Shown here piece after piece: positions 2,366 through 64,000 of a stretch of DNA of 64,000 nt. The stretch lies in assembly GCF_024298765.1 (NCBI RefSeq), contig NZ_CP101210.1; one strand, 5' to 3'. The notes under the pieces are model-generated. The model was not told where the DNA came from, made no database searches, and was given only the letters and a program-made list of their open reading frames with translations. Both the position numbers and the translations under genes were made by a program. Source of the stretch: Escherichia coli (GTDB taxonomy: Bacteria > Pseudomonadota > Gammaproteobacteria > Enterobacterales > Enterobacteriaceae). Positions within the stretch are counted from its first letter, which is position 1; the number at the start of each line of letters is the position of its first letter.

Positions 2366-2899
2366 ATGAACGCAAAAATCAGATACGGCCTGTCGGCTGC
2401 CGTTCTGGCACTGATTGCCGTCGGTGCGCCCGCGCCTGATATTCTCGACCAGTTTCTGGATGAAAAAGAAGGTAACCACACAACGGCATACCGCGATGGT
2501 TCCGGCATCTGGACCATCTGTCGGGGTGCCACGATGGTGGATGGAAAACCCGTTTTTCCCGGTATGAAACTGTCGAAGGAAAAATGCGACCAGGTCAACG
2601 CCATTGAGCGTGATAAGGCGCTGGCATGGGTGGAGCGCAATATTAAAGTACCACTGACCGAACCACAAAAAGCGGGTATCGCGTCATTTTGTCCCTATAA
2701 CATTGGCCCCGGTAAGTGTTTTCCATCGACGTTTTATAAGCGGCTGAATGCTGGTGATCGTAAGGGCGCATGCGAGGCGATTCGCTGGTGGATAAAAGAT
2801 GGTGGGCGCGATTGCCGCATACGTTCAAATAACTGCTATGGACAGGTTATTCGTCGTGACCAAGAAAGCGCATTAGCCTGTTGGGGAATAGATCAGTGA
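2366..2899 (+). CDS. SAR endolysin (T4-lysozyme-like muramidase with N-terminal signal-anchor-release domain)
   Basis: N-terminal hydrophobic Gly/Ala-rich segment [16 protein letters not shown]; catalytic E-x8-D-x5-T motif [16 protein letters not shown]. Confidence 0.9.
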
Positions 2900-3363
2900 G
2901 CAGAGTCGCCGCGATTATTTATGCTCTGGTTATCTGCATCATCGTCTGCCTGTCGTGGGCGGTCAATCATTACCGTGATAACGCCATCACCTACAAAGAA
3001 CAGCGTGATAAAAAAGTCAGTGAGCTGAAGCAGCTGACCGCCACCATCGCTGACATGCAGCAGCGTCAGCGTGATGTTGCTGCGCTCGATGCAAAGTACT
3101 CGAGAGAATTAGCCAATGCGAAAGCTGAAAATGAAACTCTGCGCGCTGATGTTGCCGCTGGTCGTAAGCGCCTGCGGGTCAATGCCAGTTGCTCCGCAGC
3201 CGTGCGTGAAGCCACCGGACCCACCAGCGTGGATAATGCAACCAGCCCCAGACTGGCAGACACCGCTGAACGGGATTATTTCACCCTCAGAGAACGGTTG
3301 ATGACGATGCAGAAGCAACTGGAAGGGGCACAGCTATACATTCGTGAGCAATGTCTCAGATAA
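2896..3363 (+). CDS. Spanin, inner-membrane subunit Rz (GTG start assumed)
   Basis: Strong similarity to lambda Rz as recalled; N-terminal TM helix then coiled coil. Confidence 0.85.
3116..3301 (+). CDS. Spanin, outer-membrane lipoprotein subunit Rz1 (embedded in Rz, +1 frame)
   Basis: Lipobox LVVSAC, proline-rich body, similar to lambda Rz1. Confidence 0.85.
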
Positions 3364-19285: not shown

Positions 19286-22200
19286 ATGGGTAAAGGCAGC
19301 AGTAAGGGGCATACCCCGCGCGAAGCGAAGGACAACCTGAAATCCACGCAGTTGCTGAGTGTGATTGATGCCATCAGTGAAGGGCCGATTGAAGGTCCGG
19401 TGGATGGATTAAAAAGCGTGCTGCTGAACAGTACGCCGGTGCTGGACAGTGAGGGGAATACCAACATCGTCGGTGTCACGGTGGTGTTCCGGGCTGGTGA
19501 GCAGGAGCAGACTCCGCCGGAGGGATTTGAATCCTCCGGCTCCGAGACGGTGCTGGGTACGGAAGTGAAATACGACACGCCGATCACCCGGACCATCACG
19601 TCGGCAAACATTGACCGACTGCGTTTTACCTTCGGCGTGCAGGCACTGGTGGAAACCACCTCAAAGGGGGACAGGAATCCGTCGGAAGTCCGCCTGCTGG
19701 TTCAGATACAGCGTAATGGTGGCTGGGTGACGGAAAAAGACATCACCATTAAGGGCAAAACCACCTCGCAGTATCTGGCCTCGGTGGTGGTGGATAACCT
19801 GCCGCCGCGCCCGTTTAATATCCGGATGCGCAGGATGACGCCGGACAGCACCACAGACCAGCTGCAGAACAAAACGCTCTGGTCGTCATACACCGAAATC
19901 ATCGATGTGAAACAGTGCTACCCGAACACGGCACTGGTCGGCGTACAGGTGGATTCGGAGCAGTTCGGCAGCCAGCAGGTGAGCCGTAATTATCATCTGC
20001 GCGGGCGTATTCTGCAGGTGCCGTCGAACTATAACCCGCAGACTCGGCAATACAGCGGTATCTGGGACGGAACGTTTAAACCGGCATACAGCAACAACCC
20101 GGCCTGGTGTCTGTGGGATATGCTGACCCATCCGCGCTACGGCATGGGAAAACGTCTTGGTGCGGCGGATGTGGATAAATGGGCGCTGTATGTCATCGGC
20201 CAGTACTGCGACCAGTCAGTGCCGGACGGCTTTGGCGGCACGGAGCCGCGCATCACCTGTAATGCGTACCTGACCACACAGCGCAAGGCGTGGGATGTGC
20301 TCAGTGATTTCTGCTCGGCGATGCGCTGTATGCCGGTATGGAACGGGCAGACGCTAACGTTCGTGCAGGACCGACCGTCGGATAAGGTGTGGACCTATAA
20401 CCGCAGTAATGTGGTGATGCCGGATGATGGTGCGCCGTTCCGCTACAGCTTCAGCGCCCTGAAGGACCGCCATAATGCCGTTGAGGTGAACTGGATTGAC
20501 CCGGATAACGGCTGGGAGACGGCGACAGAGCTTGTGGAGGACACGCAGGCCATTGCCCGTTACGGTCGTAACGTCACGAAGATGGATGCCTTTGGCTGTA
20601 CCAGCCGGGGGCAGGCGCACCGCGCCGGGCTGTGGCTGATTAAAACGGAACTGCTGGAGACGCAGACCGTGGATTTCAGCGTGGGTGCCGAAGGGCTTCG
20701 CCATGTGCCGGGTGATGTCATTGAAATCTGCGATGATGACTATGCGGGGATCAGCACCAGCGGGCGCGTGCTGGCTGTGAACAGCCAGACCCGGACGCTG
20801 ACGCTCGACCGTGAAATCACGCTGCCATCCTCCGGTACCACGCTGATAAGCCTGGTTGACGGAAGTGGCAATCCGGTCAGCGTGGAGGTCCAGTCCGTCA
20901 CCGACGGCGTGAAGGTAAAAGTGAGCCGTGTTCCTGACGGCGTTGCCGGATACAGCGTATGGGGGCTGAAGCTGCCGACGCTGCGCCAGCGCCTGTTCCG
21001 CTGCGTGAGTATCCGTGAGAACGATGACGGCACGTATGCCATCACCGCCGTGCAGCATGTACCGGAAAAAGAGGCCATCGTGGATAACGGGGCGCACTTT
21101 GACGGCGACCAGAGCGGCACGGTGAATGGTGTCACGCCGCCAGCGGTGCAGCACCTGACTGCCGAAGTCACCGCAGACAGCGGGGAATACCAGGTGCTGG
21201 CCCGCTGGGACACGCCGAAGGTGGTGAAGGGCGTGAGCTTCCTGCTCCGTCTGACCGTAACAGCGGATGACGGCAGTGAGCGGCTGGTCAGCACGGCCCG
21301 GACGACGGAAACCACATACCGCTTCACGCAACTGGCGCTGGGGAACTACAGGCTGACTGTCCGGGCTGTAAATGCGTGGGGACAGCAGGGCGAGCCGGCA
21401 TCGGTATCGTTCCGGATTGCCGCACCGGCAGCGCCGTCTCGGATTGAGCTGACACCGGGCTATTTTCAGATAACCGCCACGCCGCATCTTGCGGTTTATG
21501 ATCCGACGGTACAATTTGAGTTCTGGTTCTCGGAAACGCGGATTACCGATATCAGGCAGGTTGAAACCACAGCCCGCTACCTTGGCACGGGGCTGTACTG
21601 GATAGCCGCCAGTATCAATATCAAACCGGGCCATGATTATTACTTTTATATCCGCAGTGTGAACACCGTTGGCAAATCGGCATTCGTGGAGGCCGTCGGT
21701 CGGGCGAGCGATGATGCGGAAGGTTACCTGGATTTTTTCAAAGGCAAGATAACCGAATCCCATCTTGGTAAAGAGCTGCTGGAAAAAGTCGACCTGACGG
21801 AGGATAACGCCAGCAAACTGGAGCAGTTTTCGAAAGAGTGGAAGGATGCCAACGATAAATGGAATGCCATGTGGGCTGTCAAAATTGAGCAGACCAAAGA
21901 CGGCAAACATTATGTCGCGGGTATTGGCCTCAGTATGGAGGACACGGAGGAAGGCAAACTGAGCCAGTTTCTGGTTGCCGCTAACCGTATCGCGTTTATT
22001 GACCCGGCAAACGGGAATGAAACGCCGATGTTTGTGGCGCAGGGCAATCAGATATTCATGAACGACGTGTTCCTGAAACGCCTGACGGCCCCCACCATTA
22101 CCAGTGGTGGAAATCCACCGGCATTTTCCCTGACACCGGATGGGCGGCTGACGGCGAAAAATGCCGATATCAGCGGTAACGTGAATGCGAACTCCGGGAC

Positions 22201-22681
22201 GCTCAACAACGTCACGATTAACGAGAACTGTCGGGTTCTGGGAAAACTGTCCGCGAACCAGATTGAAGGCGATCTCGTTAAAACAGTGGGCAAAGCTTTC
22301 CCCCGGGACTCCCGTGCACCGGAACGGTGGCCATCAGGGACCATTACCGTCAGGGTTTATGACGATCAGCCGTTTGACCGGCAGATTGTTATTCCTGCGG
22401 TGGCATTCAGCGGCGCTAAACATGAGAGAGAGCATACTGATATTTACTCCTCATGCCGTCTGATAGTGCGGAAAAACGGTGCTGAAATTTATAACCGTAC
22501 CGCGCTGGATAATACGCTGATTTACAGTGGCGTTATTGATATGCCTGCCGGTCACGGTCACATGACGCTGGAGTTTTCGGTGTCAGCATGGCTGATAAAT
22601 GACTGGTATCCCACAGCAAGTATCAGCGATTTGCTGGTTGTGGTGATGAAGAAAGCCACCGCAGGCATCAGTATCAGCTGA
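19286..22681 (+). CDS. Tail tip host-specificity protein J
   Basis: 1131 aa; lambda J-like N-terminus. Confidence 0.9.
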
Positions 22682-28254: not shown

Positions 28255-28316
28255 CGGTCTCGAAAACCGGAGTAGGGGCAACTCTACCGGGGGTTCAAAT
28301 CCCCCTCTCTCCGCCA
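28255..28316 (+). other. serU: Prophage attachment core: 3' 62 nt of tRNA-Ser(CGA) serU ending in CCA, no 5' half
   Basis: Sequence CGGTCTCGAAAACCGG...CCCCCTCTCTCCGCCA matches serU 3' portion as recalled; upstream sequence is not tRNA. Confidence 0.8.
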
Positions 28317-58177: not shown

Positions 58178-58520
58178 GTTTTGTAACCTGTTGACTATGC
58201 TTGTTTATTATATCCGATCCCACAGCGTGGGGCATGGATGGGGCAAACTCACTCAATTTCTGGTTTAAAATGGATACCTGATCCTGAAAGTTTTCTGCCA
58301 TCCACGATCCGTAAACGCGATAACATGTTTTGTCTTCGCTTTGCTCCCAGGAAGAGTGAACTCATTCGTTAGCCTGGGGTTCCTTCTGATCATTATTGTT
58401 CCTGCCTTTATCTCTTGCCACGCCAGAGCCCCCTGGATACACATACACCAGGATGAAAACGGTGAGTTGTGTTCAAACTGTAGTACAATTCTCTCCAGTA
58501 TGAACAGGAAAGAATATGCT

Positions 58521-58853
58521 ATGAACCCTTATATTTATCTTGGTGGCGCAATACTTGCAGAGGTCATTGGTACAACCTTAATGAAGTTTTCAGAGGGGTT
58601 TACACGGTTATGGCCCTCTGTTGGCACAATTATTTGCTATTGTGCATCATTCTGGTTATTAGCTCAGACGCTGGCTTATATACCTACAGGGATTGCTTAT
58701 GCTATCTGGTCAGGCGTCGGTATCGTTCTGATTAGTTTGCTTTCCTGGGGATTTTTTGGTCAACGACTGGACCTGCCAGCTATCATAGGCATGATGTTGA
58801 TTTGTGCCGGTGTGTTAGTCATTAACTTGTTGTCACGAAGTGCACCGCATTAA
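58521..58853 (+). CDS. emrE: Small multidrug resistance efflux protein EmrE
   Basis: 110 aa, near-identical to K-12 EmrE as recalled (MNPYIYLGGAILAEVIGTTLMKFSEG...). Confidence 0.9.
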   Translation: MNPYIYLGGAILAEVIGTTLMKFSEGFTRLWPSVGTIICYCASFWLLAQTLAYIPTGIAYAIWSGVGIVLISLLSWGFFGQRLDLPAIIGMMLICAGVLVINLLSRSAPH

Positions 58854-59021
58854 AAAATAATTATCCTTGAGATAACAGGAATCTGATTTGTGCATATTAT
58901 GGCTAATGTTCGGGGCACCTTTATAATTATGATTGCATTTGCGCGATCATTGCGCCTTTATGCATAATGAGATCAAGGCACATCAAATAAAATAACGATA
59001 GGTCACAACAATGAGGTTTTT

Positions 59022-59573
59022 ATGAAAAAACTTATCGTTTCAAGTGTATTGGCATTCATAACATTTTCTGCGCAGGCCGCAGCATTTCAGGTCACTAGTA
59101 ATGAAATAAAAACAGGAGAGCAACTTACAACGTCTCATGTATTTTCTGGATTTGGGTGTGAAGGTGGTAATACATCGCCCTCATTAACCTGGTCTGGTGC
59201 TCCTGAAGGCACCAAAAGCTTTGCCGTAACTGTGTATGATCCAGATGCTCCTACAGGCAGTGGATGGTGGCACTGGACTGTTGCTAATATTCCAGCAACT
59301 GTAACATATTTGCCCGCTGATGCAGGAAGACGTGATGGTACAAAACTTCCGACTGGTGCTGTTCAAGGCCGAAATGATTTTGGTTATGCAGGATTTGGTG
59401 GAGCATGTCCTCCCAAAGGAGATAAACCCCATCATTACCAGTTTAAAGTATGGGCTCTAAAAACTGATAAAATTCCTGTGGATTCTAATTCCAGCGGAGC
59501 GTTAGTTGGTTATATGCTTAATGCCAATAAAATTGCAACCGCTGAGATAACACCAGTTTATGAGATAAAGTAG
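59022..59573 (+). CDS. ybcL: PEBP/YbcL-family periplasmic protein
   Basis: Signal peptide; near-identical to DLP12 YbcL as recalled. Confidence 0.85.
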   Translation: MKKLIVSSVLAFITFSAQAAAFQVTSNEIKTGEQLTTSHVFSGFGCEGGNTSPSLTWSGAPEGTKSFAVTVYDPDAPTGSGWWHWTVANIPATVTYLPADAGRRDGTKLPTGAVQGRNDFGYAGFGGACPPKGDKPHHYQFKVWALKTDKIPVDSNSSGALVGYMLNANKIATAEITPVYEIK

Positions 59574-59582
59574 GGTAAGAGT

Positions 59583-60380
59583 ATGCTGGCAAAAGATAAG
59601 ACTAACCTAAAGATTGAAGAAATACGGATGCATAAACATCATGAGATTCACAGGGTTAAGCCTCTTATGCCAGCTTTATGTCGTATCCGTCAGGGAAAAA
59701 AAGTTATCAATTGGGAGACGCATAGTCTAACTGTTGATAATAATCAGATAATATTATTTCCCTGTGGATATGAATTTTATATTGCGAATTATCCAGAAGC
59801 AGGTCTTTATCTTGCAGAAATGCTTTATTATCCCATTGATCTAATTGAAAAGTTTCAAAAATTTTATGCGATAACTGATCAAATTCGTAACACGACAGGT
59901 TTCTGCTTACCTCAGAACCCCGAGTTAATATATTGTTGGGAGCAACTAAAAACATCTATTTCCCGAGGCTTCTCAACGCAAATTCAGGAACACTTAGCAA
60001 TGGGCGTTCTACTTTCATTAGGAGCACATCATGTTAATTGTTTACTTTTATCAGATAGTAAACAATCATTAATAAGTCGTTGTTATAACCTAATGCTATC
60101 CGAACCTGGAACAAAATGGACAGCAAACAAGGTAGCGAGATATCTCTACATTTCTGTTTCCACATTGCATCGCCGTCTGGCAAGCGAGGGAGTAAGTTTT
60201 CAAAGTATATTGGACGACGTGAGGTTAAATAATGCGTTGTCTGCTATACAAACGACAGTAAAACCCATCAGCGAGATTGCCAGGGAAAATGGTTACAAGT
60301 GTCCTTCTCGTTTTACTGAAAGGTTCCATAATCGTTTTAAGATAACACCAAGAGAGCTAAGAAAAGCGTCCAGAGAGTAA
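59583..60380 (+). CDS. ybcM: AraC-family transcriptional regulator (DLP12 YbcM-like)
   Basis: C-terminal AraC-type HTH; position after ybcL. Confidence 0.8.
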
Positions 60381-60536
60381 AAGTATTTTATGAAGGAGCA
60401 ACAGCATCGATTTTTATTTTGGAAAATAAATACGGCATACTCAACCTATTGGAGTCTGAACAATCCGGTGACTTCTGCGCTAATCGGGGACGTTTCTAAG
60501 CACATATAATTGATACTATCTTCCTCCATCACAATT

Positions 60537-60890
60537 TCAGAAATGCACGTGTGATTTTTTTGCATCCGGCGTTTGGACTATGTGGAGCTCAAGAGTGGGA
60601 AAGTTACAAGAGGTTGAGGGGATAATTAAAGGGATGCTTATGACATTAGATATCCGGTTAGGTGCGGATATCGTTGTTATTAAATCTAGTTGATACGTTA
60701 AGATGCAGCTACTGACAAAATAGCCAGGACTCCACAAAACGCCTTTGTCGTAATACCTGACTGCAATATCTGGTCGATCTCGTCGCAGTAACCTACTCGA
60801 TACGCCTTTGAGGCTGTTTACCAGACTGGATATCGCCAGTTTGGGAGGATAGTTAATTAACAAATGGACGTGATCTGGTCCGCCATCCAT
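60537..60890 (-). pseudogene. IS200/IS605-family TnpA (HUH transposase) remnant, 5'-truncated
   Basis: HVHLL HUH motif and KGxSSR segment present; N-terminal ~55 aa missing; divergent C-terminus. Confidence 0.65.
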
Positions 60891-60991
60891 TTCAACCCGT
60901 TCAGCTTCAAAATCAGCACATACATTTGAAAAGTAAGTGCGTAGTTTTTCTGTCGCGTCATGGTCAAAAATCTGACGTCGGTATTTAGAGC

Positions 60992-61797
60992 CTATCCCAA
61001 TAGGGTTTTGTTCCAGACAATGACACCACAGGCAAAATGCAGCATCGCCTCATAATTCTCGACCTTCTTCTCCCAACGAGTCAGGACACGGCGGTAGCGA
61101 TTCATCCAACTGTGTGTTCTCTCTACAACCCAGCGGTGAGCCTTAAAATCCGTGTATTTGATGGCCTCTGACTCATCCTTTCGTGACTGGATATGAGGTT
61201 CATAGCGACGACTTTTCAGATACGATTCCAGCCATTCCGCTTCATACCCTTTGTCCATGCACAACCGGAGCCTCTTGCCCGGTCTGCCCGTCTGGAGGGC
61301 ATCGAGCGTATCCGTAACCAACTTTATGTCGTGCGTATTTGCTCCGGCAACAACCAGTGCAAGCGGTAGCCCGTTCCCGTCAGTCATCAGACTGCGCTTT
61401 ACGCCCTGTTTCCCCCGGTCTGTAGGGTTCTTGCCTGTTTTTTTGAGCCTGCCAGCGGTGATTTGGTTATACAACCATCCATCGACAGCCACGACCAGTC
61501 AATAGAGTCCAACTGTTCGCAAGCAAGCAACCCATTTTACCAGAAGCGTTCAAATACTCCGGCATCTCGCCACTCCTGAAATCGGCGATGAGCAGAGCTT
61601 GACGAGCATATACCGGTGGCATTCAGCGCATTCCATTGGCAGCCCGTCCTGAGTACGAAGAAAATGGCGTTCATTGCAGCGCGATTATCAACCCGCTTGC
61701 GGTGCGTACCCAGCGGGTGTTGAGTTTTATGCTCCGGGATGAGTGGAGCCATTTTCTCCCAGAGTCCATCACTGATCTGCCACTTGTTGCCCGCCAC
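60992..61797 (-). mobile_element. IS5-family insertion sequence transposase, split into two ORFs (61537-61797 N-terminal HTH part; 60992-61492 DDE part)
   Basis: N-terminal ...LRTGCQWNAL...RFQEWRDAGVFERFW and C-terminal HRWVVERTHSWMN motifs typical of IS5 family; the two ORFs are separated by an in-frame stop, not a simple slippery-site overlap. Confidence 0.7.
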
Positions 61798-61943
61798 ACT
61801 TCGCCCTCAGAAATTATCATATTGTATTATCTGACAATTCCTTTTGGGATAGGTTCTTAGTAACGAAGACTAGGTGAACATGCTTCAGGAAAACACAATG
61901 CCTTCCGCGTCGGATATCGGTTTCTTTTTTCATAGGCCAAAGT

Positions 61944-62285
61944 ATGATTTGGCCCATGAAACGACTACAGGCATTCAAATTCCGGTTAAGACCAGGTGGT
62001 CAACAGGAGCGTGAAATGAGGCGCTTCGCAGGCGCATGTCGTTTCGTTTTCAATCGTGCTCTGGCGCTTCAGAATGAGAATCATGAGGCCGGTAATAAAT
62101 ACATCCCTTACGGGAAAATGGCTTCCTGGTTGGTTGAGTGGAAAAATGCCACTGAAACGCAATGGCTTAAAGATTCGCCCTCACAGCCATTGCAACAGTC
62201 ACTGAAAGACCCTGAGCGGGCTTACAAAAACTTCTTCCGGCTTCGTCACCACGCTCAAACGGTGTGCTACCTATCGCGGCTATAA
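61944..62285 (+). pseudogene. IS200/IS605-family TnpB N-terminal fragment (about 98 aa of roughly 400)
   Basis: MKRLQAFKFRLRP...RFVFNRALA...AYKNFF signature then loss of similarity. Confidence 0.65.
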
Positions 62286-62664
62286 AAACAGCTTGTCCAT
62301 CAGCACGATAGATAAAATAAGGCTGCTTTTTGTCGCCTTCTTTTTTCCACTCAAACCAGCCATCGGCAAAACAGATTGCCCGACCATGTTGCCAGAGCGG
62401 TTTAAACATGTGACTGGTTGCGGCAGTTTCTACGCGGGCGTTAATCAGCGGCGGTTTATCCCACCATCCGGGAGCATATCCCCAGAAAACCGGATCCAGA
62501 TGAAGGTGTTCATCACGTTCACTGAGCAGAAGGACTTTGGTTCCCGGCGCGACGTTGTATCTGCCAATAGGTTCGGGATCGTAGGGAATATCGCGTTCAA
62601 TATCTTCCGCGAGAAGCGCAAGGTAATCTTCACGCGTTTGGGATTGGGCAAAGCGTCCACACAT
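62167..62664 (-). pseudogene. yedK: SOS-response-associated peptidase YedK (SRAP/HMCES-like), 3'-truncated at about 62238 by IS remnant
   Basis: N-terminal MCGRFAQ (Cys2 nucleophile) and first ~142 aa YedK-like; ORF then reads into IS sequence and stops at 165 aa (K-12 YedK about 222 aa as recalled). Confidence 0.7.
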
Positions 62665-62772
62665 AGAAACCTCCTGAGGTCACACTGAAAAGAATAGGAG
62701 AGGGGGCGGGTTAAATCTATGTGATAGAGAGGCAACGATATTCCCGCTGTGGGCCACAGCGGGAATGAGGGA

Positions 62773-63006
62773 TTACTTCTGAATTAAATAACGAATGGTC
62801 GGCCCGTCTTGCTGAATATCCAGCACCGTATAGCCGTGATTACGCGCATCCAGTGGAATATTATTGATCGACTGCGGACAGTCGCTCACCACTTCCAGGA
62901 TCTCCCCTTTTTTTAACTGCGGCATCGCCTCAAGGGTTGCGACTGCCGGATAAGGGCAGGGTTCACCCACCATATCAAGACGGTAATCAGGAACGATATT
63001 TTTCAT
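62773..63006 (-). CDS. yedF: TusA-like sulfurtransferase YedF
   Basis: 77 aa with CPxP motif. Confidence 0.9.
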   Translation of the reverse strand: MKNIVPDYRLDMVGEPCPYPAVATLEAMPQLKKGEILEVVSDCPQSINNIPLDARNHGYTVLDIQQDGPTIRYLIQK

Positions 63007-64000
63007 GCGATCTCCTTAGCAGTCTGCGGTGCCGCACGGCGGAAGAAGCGTTTTTCCCAGCCAATAATCAACATTAGAGCAGCAAACAACAGCAAATATG
63101 TCACCAGCAGGCCGCCCATCGGGCCAAAGGTTTTCAGCAGGTTGATTTTGTCCCAGTCGGTGGCCAGCGCCGGAGCGAAATCATCCCAGTAGTACGCCAG
63201 AATCGTTGAGCCGATCACGTTGCCCAGACCGACCCACCAGTAGTGCACCTGGCCTTCTACCGCGCGGTACATCCAGCCGGTTTCGCAGCCGCCTGCCAGC
63301 ACGATGCCAAAACCAAACAGTAAACCACCAATTACCGCGTTTGGTCCCGCCCACATGATTTTGGGTTCAACGCCTAACTGTACGTAACTGAAGATCCCGA
63401 TGGCACTTACCGCCATACCGATAATGATTGCTTTCGCCATATGGGTACGTCCGGTGATCCACATATCGCGGAACGCCGAAGTAAAGCAGATTTGCGCACG
63501 TTCAATCAGTAAACCAAAGCCGACGCCAAACAGCATTGCCAGCCCCAGTTTGGGCTGGTTCATCGCCGTCAGCAGCGCCCAGCCCAGCAGGCCGAAAAAG
63601 ACCAGCATCCCGAGACGAAAACGACGCCGCGCCTGATCCGGTTTTTGCGTCAACGGTGAGGCAGCAGAAACTTTCTGCATTTTCACGGGAATACGGAAGA
63701 TGGGCAGAAGGGTAAAGCGCGCGCCAAACCATGAACCAATGGCAGTGGCGATGGCAAAGAACCAGGCGTGCAGCGAGAACTGTGGAATTCCGGTAAAGAA
63801 CGCCGCCAGGTTACAGCCCATTGCCAGACGTGCGCCAAAACCGGCGATAATACCGCCAATGATGGCCTGCATAATGCGGATACGGCTGCGCGGCATGCGC
63901 AGTTTGACATTGTTGGCCCACAGCGCTGCGGCAAAACAGCCGCCAAACATACCGAGGATCATCATTCCGTCGATGCGGGTTAATGGCGATCCTTCCAGAT
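63003..64000 (-). CDS. yedE: Selenium/sulfur-compound transporter YedE (5' end beyond window)
   Basis: Polytopic membrane protein overlapping yedF start; extends past window end. Confidence 0.85.
   Translation of the reverse strand, partial: LEGSPLTRIDGMMILGMFGGCFAAALWANNVKLRMPRSRIRIMQAIIGGIIAGFGARLAMGCNLAAFFTGIPQFSLHAWFFAIATAIGSWFGARFTLLPIFRIPVKMQKVSAASPLTQKPDQARRRFRLGMLVFFGLLGWALLTAMNQPKLGLAMLFGVGFGLLIERAQICFTSAFRDMWITGRTHMAKAIIIGMAVSAIGIFSYVQLGVEPKIMWAGPNAVIGGLLFGFGIVLAGGCETGWMYRAVEGQVHYWWVGLGNVIGSTILAYYWDDFAPALATDWDKINLLKTFGPMGGLLVTYLLLFAALMLIIGWEKRFFRRAAPQTAKEIA

Follow-up and report, generated by a model that had tools for sequence, protein, structure and literature searches.

What is left in working order, and by what route did it arise, where one insertion sequence (IS) lies within the remnant of another and that remnant runs directly into the SRAP-family gene yedK? 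We asked this of positions 60537-62664 of a 64,000-nt stretch of Escherichia coli DNA (contig NZ_CP101210.1; the whole stretch is called the window, and positions are counted from its first letter), where a first-pass annotation made from the letters alone had described an IS5-family element nested within an IS200/IS605 remnant. The nesting was confirmed by Pfam, by an empty site and by alignment to IS609, and the locus is an ordinary decayed nested IS scar with nothing mechanistically new in it. Very probably, it is an inert scar left by several mobile-element events in the variable island that separates fliE from yedK, and it decayed in place.

Listing of open reading frames (ORFs) together with Pfam over 60537-62664 confirmed the pieces (Table 1), and the IS-like ORFs, whose family membership the first reading had left to be checked, matched Y1_Tnp, DUF4096, DDE_Tnp_1 and HTH_OrfB_IS605. 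The interval 60300-63100 matches dozens of complete E. coli genomes at 100%. In one of them, strain 104 (NZ_CP029164), where DNA identical to 60300-63100 is found, RefSeq flags every piece as a pseudogene (tnpA C-terminal part, IS5-family transposase, tnpA N-terminal part, TnpB-type helix-turn-helix (HTH) fragment and truncated SRAP gene); the pieces of the scar are already annotated in RefSeq and already known as pseudogenes. At the same time, we found no published description of the truncated yedK allele in the literature on yedK pseudogenes, IS609 and TnpB.

Anatomy of the IS609 remnant

The outer element is derived from IS609, of which it is a nonfunctional member. It comprises nt 117-778 of the 1748 nt of IS609 (662 bp), with 95.0-97.5% identity over nt 117-396 and 400-780, nt 397-399 being the TTA target of the inserted element. 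The name IS609 comes from the PGAP product name, and the K-12-lineage strain DH1 has IS609 as tnpA/insQ. Three genomes carry intact IS609 as a 1,748-bp element with identical ends at different sites, always 3' of TTATC, starting with CGGTGCGCCGTAAAACCCCGTCCTTCAGGGCGGGG after this motif and ending with GGAGGATGTCAA(C/T). The window contains neither of these ends: the left-end hairpin (nt 1-116) is deleted, and so are the 3' end of tnpB and the right end (nt 779-1748). With both ends gone, the remnant shows neither the subterminal hairpins nor the insertion 3' of TTATC that characterise IS609. A single exact match to the IS609 hairpin core, GTCCTTCAGGGC, occurs in the window at 20456 within the GpJ tail-tip gene, and we rejected it as a chance match because no IS609 similarity flanks it.

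What remains resembles IS609 (the K-12 copy, tnpA/insQ, lies near ydcL-ydcO) in its divergent tnpA and tnpB, in the palindrome that spans both start regions, and in the TnpA HUH motif and TnpB N-terminal HTH; it differs in having neither end hairpins, nor Tyr135, nor the RuvC/zinc-finger part, nor the omega-RNA template, and in that its tnpA is split by another IS. The palindrome reads CAT…ATG in the window and CAC…GTG in intact IS609, so that both arms have changed while pairing is kept; this may point to a conserved operator or RNA hairpin.

The first-pass annotation had tnpA truncated at its 5' end and the IS5-family element lying between tnpA and tnpB. Neither claim held up. The element is inserted inside tnpA, which it splits early, at IS609 nt 397-399 (TTA), and the first ~29 tnpA codons stand beyond it, at 61860-61948; joining this piece to 60705-60987 reopens a single TnpA frame. 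Its original ATG has become ATC by mutation; there is an internal Met at 61931-61933. The truncation is instead 3', at 60705, where tnpA is cut after Cys124 and the last 19 codons are gone (intact TnpA has 143 aa). The Y1_Tnp domain was found in the ORF at 60537-60890 (minus strand; Pfam E=1e-18, profile positions 46-106 of 121), and NCBIfam transpos_IS200 also matches the remnant. This 117-aa ORF is TnpA-like for its first 62 residues only, the remainder being read-through into unrelated DNA. The HUH motif (HVH) is kept in the 60705-60987 piece, and the catalytic Tyr135 (RQYIEQQ, in the C-terminal helix) is deleted, leaving the piece short of a Y1 HUH transposase. RefSeq presents the protein WP_015674555.1 of strain ETEC1702 (174 aa, 2657-3181 of the extracted locus) as an intact IS200/IS605 transposase; we find it to be a read-through chimera that follows TnpA to Cys124, continues for about 50 residues of unrelated sequence and lacks the catalytic tyrosine.

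An N-terminal TnpB fragment on the plus strand, as first proposed, was supported by both profile libraries: Pfam places an HTH_OrfB_IS605 domain in the ORF at 61944-62285 (plus strand), and NCBIfam guided_TnpB is matched at positions 1-92 of 389. The fragment consists of the HTH/wedge N-terminus only. IS609 similarity stops at 62238-62240, and the presumed RuvC motifs (around residues 182, 265 and 361) and the zinc-finger region are absent, so that the parts expected of an RNA-guided nuclease are not there. The further suggestion that right-end or omega-RNA-like sequence might persist is refuted by the deletion of IS609 nt 779-1748, which leaves no IS605-family end. Rfam (E≤1) gave no relevant match in the scar (60300-62800) or in an intact IS609 locus; as it misses the intact element, it is uninformative for the IS609 omega-RNA, and the absence of the omega-RNA template and right end rests on their physical deletion. 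No TnpB or omega-RNA activity is to be expected at this locus.

Truncation of yedK

The tnpB fragment had been said to adjoin a 3'-truncated yedK at 62238, and nucleotide alignments bore this out to the exact coordinate, the DNA similarities to IS609 and to yedK meeting at 62238/62239 (last tnpB base 62238, first yedK base 62239). That yedK is truncated was also correct; the figure of about 57 lost codons was not. Alignment to the K-12 allele, whose product has 222 aa, showed the window copy to be incomplete, with 142 of 222 codons present and the last 80 (the C-terminal 36%) missing. The SRAP/YedK ORF at 62167-62664 (minus strand) is identical to K-12 YedK at 137 of 142 residues (96%), over residues 1-142 only. 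After codon 142 it adds 23 unrelated codons, antisense to tnpB, and reaches a stop at 62167, giving a chimera of 165 aa. Alignment to the sequences of the YedK crystal structures (PDB 6NUA, 6KCQ and 2ICU) ends at residue 143, Pfam SRAP is matched only at profile positions 1-138 of 214, and NCBIfam PRK09951 scores 324.6 bits, under its cut-off of 349, at positions 1-143 of 222.

Taking the roles of YedK residues from PMC9436759, we find Cys2, Asn75 and Glu105 kept in the truncated protein and His160 absent, so that neither a complete SRAP fold nor the full set of four catalytic residues is encoded. His160 is the general acid in abasic-site ring opening, and the H160A variant is at least 10-fold slower (PMC9436759). 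Compared with E. coli YedK, then, the window copy retains the native promoter side, the start codon and these three residues, whereas residues 143-222, His160 included, are swapped for the 23 residues antisense to tnpB. Because 36% of the fold is lost, we infer that yedK here is likely a null or severely crippled allele.

The inserted IS5-family element

The ends of the IS5-family element were set by aligning the copy in the window with three others that stand between different flanks (strains F11, E1 and wlxctx60). The terminal inverted repeats, which the first-pass annotation had left to be sought, were found to be imperfect, GAGCCTATCCCAATAGG at 60988-61004 and CCTTTTGGGATAGGTTC at 61840-61856, with termini reading GAGCCTATCCC… and …GGGATAGGTTC. 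They are accompanied by a 3-bp target-site duplication (TTA here; TAA or TTA at other copies), and the element thus has both the inverted repeats and the target-site duplication looked for in the IS5 family. The empty site was observed directly: when 60988-61859 is removed, the remaining DNA matches ETEC1702 at 100% in a single piece, and therefore the empty site and the 3-bp duplication are both proven.

According to the first reading, the transposase was split by a stop codon rather than by a clean programmed frameshift. The stop codon is real, while the two-ORF layout has another origin, a native −1 frameshift at the A7 run. When the two frames are fused at A7, the resulting protein of 268 aa matches NCBIfam transpos_IS5_3 (NF033580) with E=5e-83 at positions 2-258 of 258, and strain F11 has 20 copies of the element, 99.7-99.9% identical and with the same two-frame layout. 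Because these 20 copies share the layout and the fused protein matches the profile end to end, the frameshift is, by its sequence, native. The sole difference from the F11 copy examined is at 61539 (A here, G elsewhere), which turns a CAA codon of orfA, upstream of A7, into TAA, and this nonsense codon is predicted to inactivate the copy. The sequence features of a DDE transposase with DUF4096 made via a −1 frameshift are all present, and it is the premature stop that blocks the protein; the PGAP label for this transposase is 'programmed frameshift; internal stop'.

The closest named relatives are copies annotated as ISPrst3 (~94% nt identity, 93.8%), a name taken from PGAP products on plasmids, and the element may carry an ISfinder name of its own. 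It resembles the ISPrst3/transpos_IS5_3 type in its length of 869 bp, its ~17-nt imperfect inverted repeats starting with GA, its 3-bp TNA-type duplication, its DUF4096 and DDE_Tnp_1 domains and its A7 slippery site, and differs by the ~94% identity and by the nonsense codon in orfA. Elements of this type are mobile, as seen from the 20 places in F11 and from plasmids of at least five genera, which speaks for the type and not for the window copy. A search for further genomic copies, made in strain 104, which has the same allele, returned no second copy of either the IS5-family element or IS609; it is F11 that has many of the former.

This bears on whether the scar is fully inert. The inserted copy might still move, either in trans, with transposase supplied by a sister element, or if the TAA were read through, and its inverted repeats, both identical to those of the 20-copy element, the single point mutation, and the 99.9%-identical copies that E. 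coli and Klebsiella have on conjugative plasmids of ~190 kb would all fit with this. We nevertheless consider it unlikely, as representative carriers of the allele have no second copy (one place in strain 104 and others), most DDE transposases act preferentially in cis, and the insertion sits at one fixed site in all 63 genomes that have it (see below). Nothing at the scar, therefore, is predicted to be able to transpose: the IS609 remnant because its ends, catalytic tyrosine and RuvC domain are all missing, and the IS5-family copy, with its intact ends, because the nonsense codon would leave it unable to make its own transposase.

Joins on either side of the remnant

The sequences of both junctions could be read directly against related genomes. 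In strain 536, which has no IS609 here, ybcM is followed by a spacer, an ompC-like porin gene and full-length yedK. In strains C11 and KMi029 the porin is absent and IS609 precisely separates TTATC from AAACAGG, which form one continuous sequence in 536, at a point within the yedK stop codon; yedK there encodes 223 aa (one Cys codon added) and is otherwise intact. The IS609 copies examined at this stop codon are L011 1909-3656 and L006 4418-6065, and the omega-RNA guide region of an element in this position would be the yedK 3' end (AAACAGGTTGAATTAA). The window has the same porin-deletion joint as C11 and KMi029. Relative to C11, 722 bp are missing on the left, where a crossover in the 8-nt homology GCAGCTAC (60705-60712) joined 5' codons of the ompC-like porin to the tnpA 3' region of IS609, and ~1,200 bp are missing on the right, between tnpB and yedK. 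KMi029 has lost the right-end hairpin of its IS609 by a separate 100-bp deletion between GTGGAG repeats, and its tnpB contains an internal stop.

Transposase-mediated adjacent deletions can be ruled out because neither deletion has an endpoint at an IS end. The simplest mechanism would be slipped-strand or microhomology-mediated deletion, possibly helped by the end hairpins. We also considered that the deletions are footprints of the IS609 nucleases, with breaks made by TnpA at the end cleavage sites, or by TnpB and its omega-RNA at the donor joint, being healed by microhomology-mediated end joining. Each deletion does span one IS609 boundary (one IS end and the adjacent flank), both junctions show microhomology, and the independent third deletion, in KMi029, also takes the right-end hairpin. 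Even so, this origin appears quite improbable: none of the deletions ends at a site of TnpA cleavage or at a TnpB target, replication slippage between short direct repeats, stimulated by hairpins, gives the same pattern without any nuclease, and C11 and KMi029 already have a defective tnpA at this locus (annotated as lacking its C-terminus; internal stop in KMi029). Moreover, TnpB cuts once the whole element has been excised, whereas here the element's middle part is still in place.

Order of events and occurrence among genomes

We counted the junctions directly in 5,426 complete RefSeq E. coli genomes, which are a biased sample. The right (tnpB::yedK) junction was present in 1,110 genomes, about one fifth, and the left junction in 1,108; an IS609 right end adjoining full-length yedK, with the element seated in the yedK stop codon, was seen in ~1,080. 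Both deletions together with the IS5-family insertion were found in 63 genomes, a sub-lineage whose members include avian-pathogenic strains as well as one strain named ST648. As the insertion is present in only 63 of the ~1,110 deletion carriers, it is the latest event. One strain, GPEC996 (NZ_CM142798.1 2056654-2060654), has the scar with a further ~1.2-kb insertion, annotated as an ISKpn26-family IS5-like transposase, a third layer of nesting in a single strain.

From these comparisons we infer the following history, in which the order of the second to fifth steps is the conjectural part. The ancestral order would have been emrE-ybcL-ybcM-porin-yedK, as in strain 536, and the porin gene would then have been deleted. 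The 1,748-bp IS609 would next have inserted 3' of TTATC in the yedK stop codon, with tnpB and its right end toward yedK. A 722-bp deletion between two GCAGCTAC repeats would have taken the left end of IS609 together with the 19 final codons of tnpA, and a ~1.2-kb deletion at the imperfect homology would have taken codons 95-402 of tnpB, the right end and its omega-RNA template, as well as the 80 final codons of yedK. Most recently, an 869-bp ISPrst3-like element inserted in the tnpA remnant with duplication of TTA; the orfA CAA→TAA change, absent from the active copies examined, may have arisen before or after this insertion.

Several observations weigh against this account, or against parts of it. 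The remnant is 95.5-95.8% identical to the IS609 of the yedK locus (C11, KMi029) and 95.0-95.8% identical to unrelated IS609 copies, and with such equal distances the case for orthology comes from where the remnant lies, how it is oriented and the porin-deletion junction that it shares, and gains nothing from sequence. This lineage has itself lost the joint between the IS609 right end and yedK. Almost all genomes have both deletions or neither, so that either of the two may have come first. Finally, the 165-aa YedK chimera, with its Cys2 and Glu105, may retain some residual cross-linking chemistry.

It is highly improbable that the IS609 fragment was instead imported already truncated, by homologous recombination or transduction, with yedK truncated in the same import, for although the remnant is equally far (~95-96%) from all IS609 copies examined and the allele occurs at 99.7-100% identity in diverse strains, suggesting horizontal spread of the whole allele, the window shares its porin-deletion joint with genomes that have intact IS609 at yedK, tnpB has the same place and direction with respect to yedK as it has there, each junction is a simple join of two parents derivable from the C11 arrangement, and recombinational spread of a finished allele is compatible with decay in place and does not replace it.

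Surroundings of the scar

Table 1. Positions of the pieces, junctions and neighbouring features of the scar in the window
Feature	Position	Strand	Basis
Native spacer downstream of ybcM, non-IS	60381-60691		98-99% identity to related strains
Porin-gene 5' remainder (~20 nt) and left deletion junction	60692-60712		three-way alignment of parents and window
IS609 part 1 (nt 117-399), tnpA codons ~30-124	60705-60987	-	97.5% identity to intact IS609
Target-site duplication TTA, left copy	60985-60987		copy alignment
IS5-family insertion sequence, 869 bp	60988-61856	-	ends from four copies with different flanks
IS5-family orfB (DDE_Tnp_1 catalytic domain)	60992-61492	-	Pfam E=1e-16
A7 slippery run, A AAA AAA in orfA frame	61439-61445	-	−1 fusion matches transpos_IS5_3
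IS5-family orfA (DUF4096)	61537-61797	-	Pfam; early TAA at 61537-61539
Target-site duplication TTA, right copy	61857-61859		copy alignment and empty site
IS609 part 2a, tnpA codons 1-~29	61860-61948	-	joined-frame reconstruction; PGAP N-terminal fragment
Native IS609 intergenic palindrome, 14-nt arms	61928-61961		inverted-repeat search; overlaps tnpA/tnpB start regions
IS609 part 2b, tnpB codons 1-94 of 402	61956-62238	+	90/94 residues identical to intact IS609 TnpB
Right deletion junction, imperfect short homology AAAAA..CTTC	62227-62240		three-way alignment, overlapping BLAST ends
yedK codons 1-142 of 222	62239-62664	-	alignment to K-12 YedK, DNA similarity end

The spacer to the left of the scar has its 98-99% identity both with strain 536 and another strain lacking IS609 here and with carriers of IS609 at this place. 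A 21-nt unit at its right edge, CGTTGTTATTAAATCTAGTT (60671-60691), is single in the window and present as three tandem copies in KMi029 and C11, making it a small variable-number repeat. Further left, emrE, ybcL and ybcM (58341-60380), which in K-12 are DLP12-prophage genes, sit between fliE and yedK in an island that is low in GC (40%, vs 50% for the window). These three genes replace yedL-yedN-yedM-intG of K-12.

The window as a whole is not the same as strain 104; the match starts only at 28255 (compared up to 50001, with 60300-63100 identical). Positions 1-28254 have no match to strain 104, where a yersiniabactin island and tRNA-Asn/tRNA-Ser stand in their place. This left 28 kb has lambdoid prophage-like content, including a 1,131-aa tip-attachment protein J (GpJ-like ORF, 19286-22681), and a cluster of four tRNAs (Met, Lys, Thr and Gly) at 1130-1439. 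The break relative to strain 104, at ~28255, falls within the position of the strain 104 tRNA-Ser; at this point of the window ARAGORN reports no tRNA.

Discussion

As a piece of mobile-element biology, the scar is textbook IS decay and nesting and matters little. A more far-reaching view would be that the truncated yedK allele amounts to a natural and widespread knockout of SRAP, carried by ~20% of complete E. coli genomes and perhaps produced by break repair at IS609 ends, and to this we give little credence; if true, IS200/IS605 ends or their nucleases would make neighbouring genes especially prone to deletion. There is also a consequence for annotation, since for the ~1,047 carriers without the IS5-family insertion RefSeq may list the chimera WP_015674555.1 as an 'intact' transposase, as judged from ETEC1702, the one annotation examined.

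For the host, the only consequence of the scar would be a yedK allele that is likely null or severely crippled. About one fifth of complete E. coli genomes have a yedK without His160 and the C-terminal third, and this is relevant to studies of abasic-site DNA-protein cross-link repair that are carried out on natural isolates.

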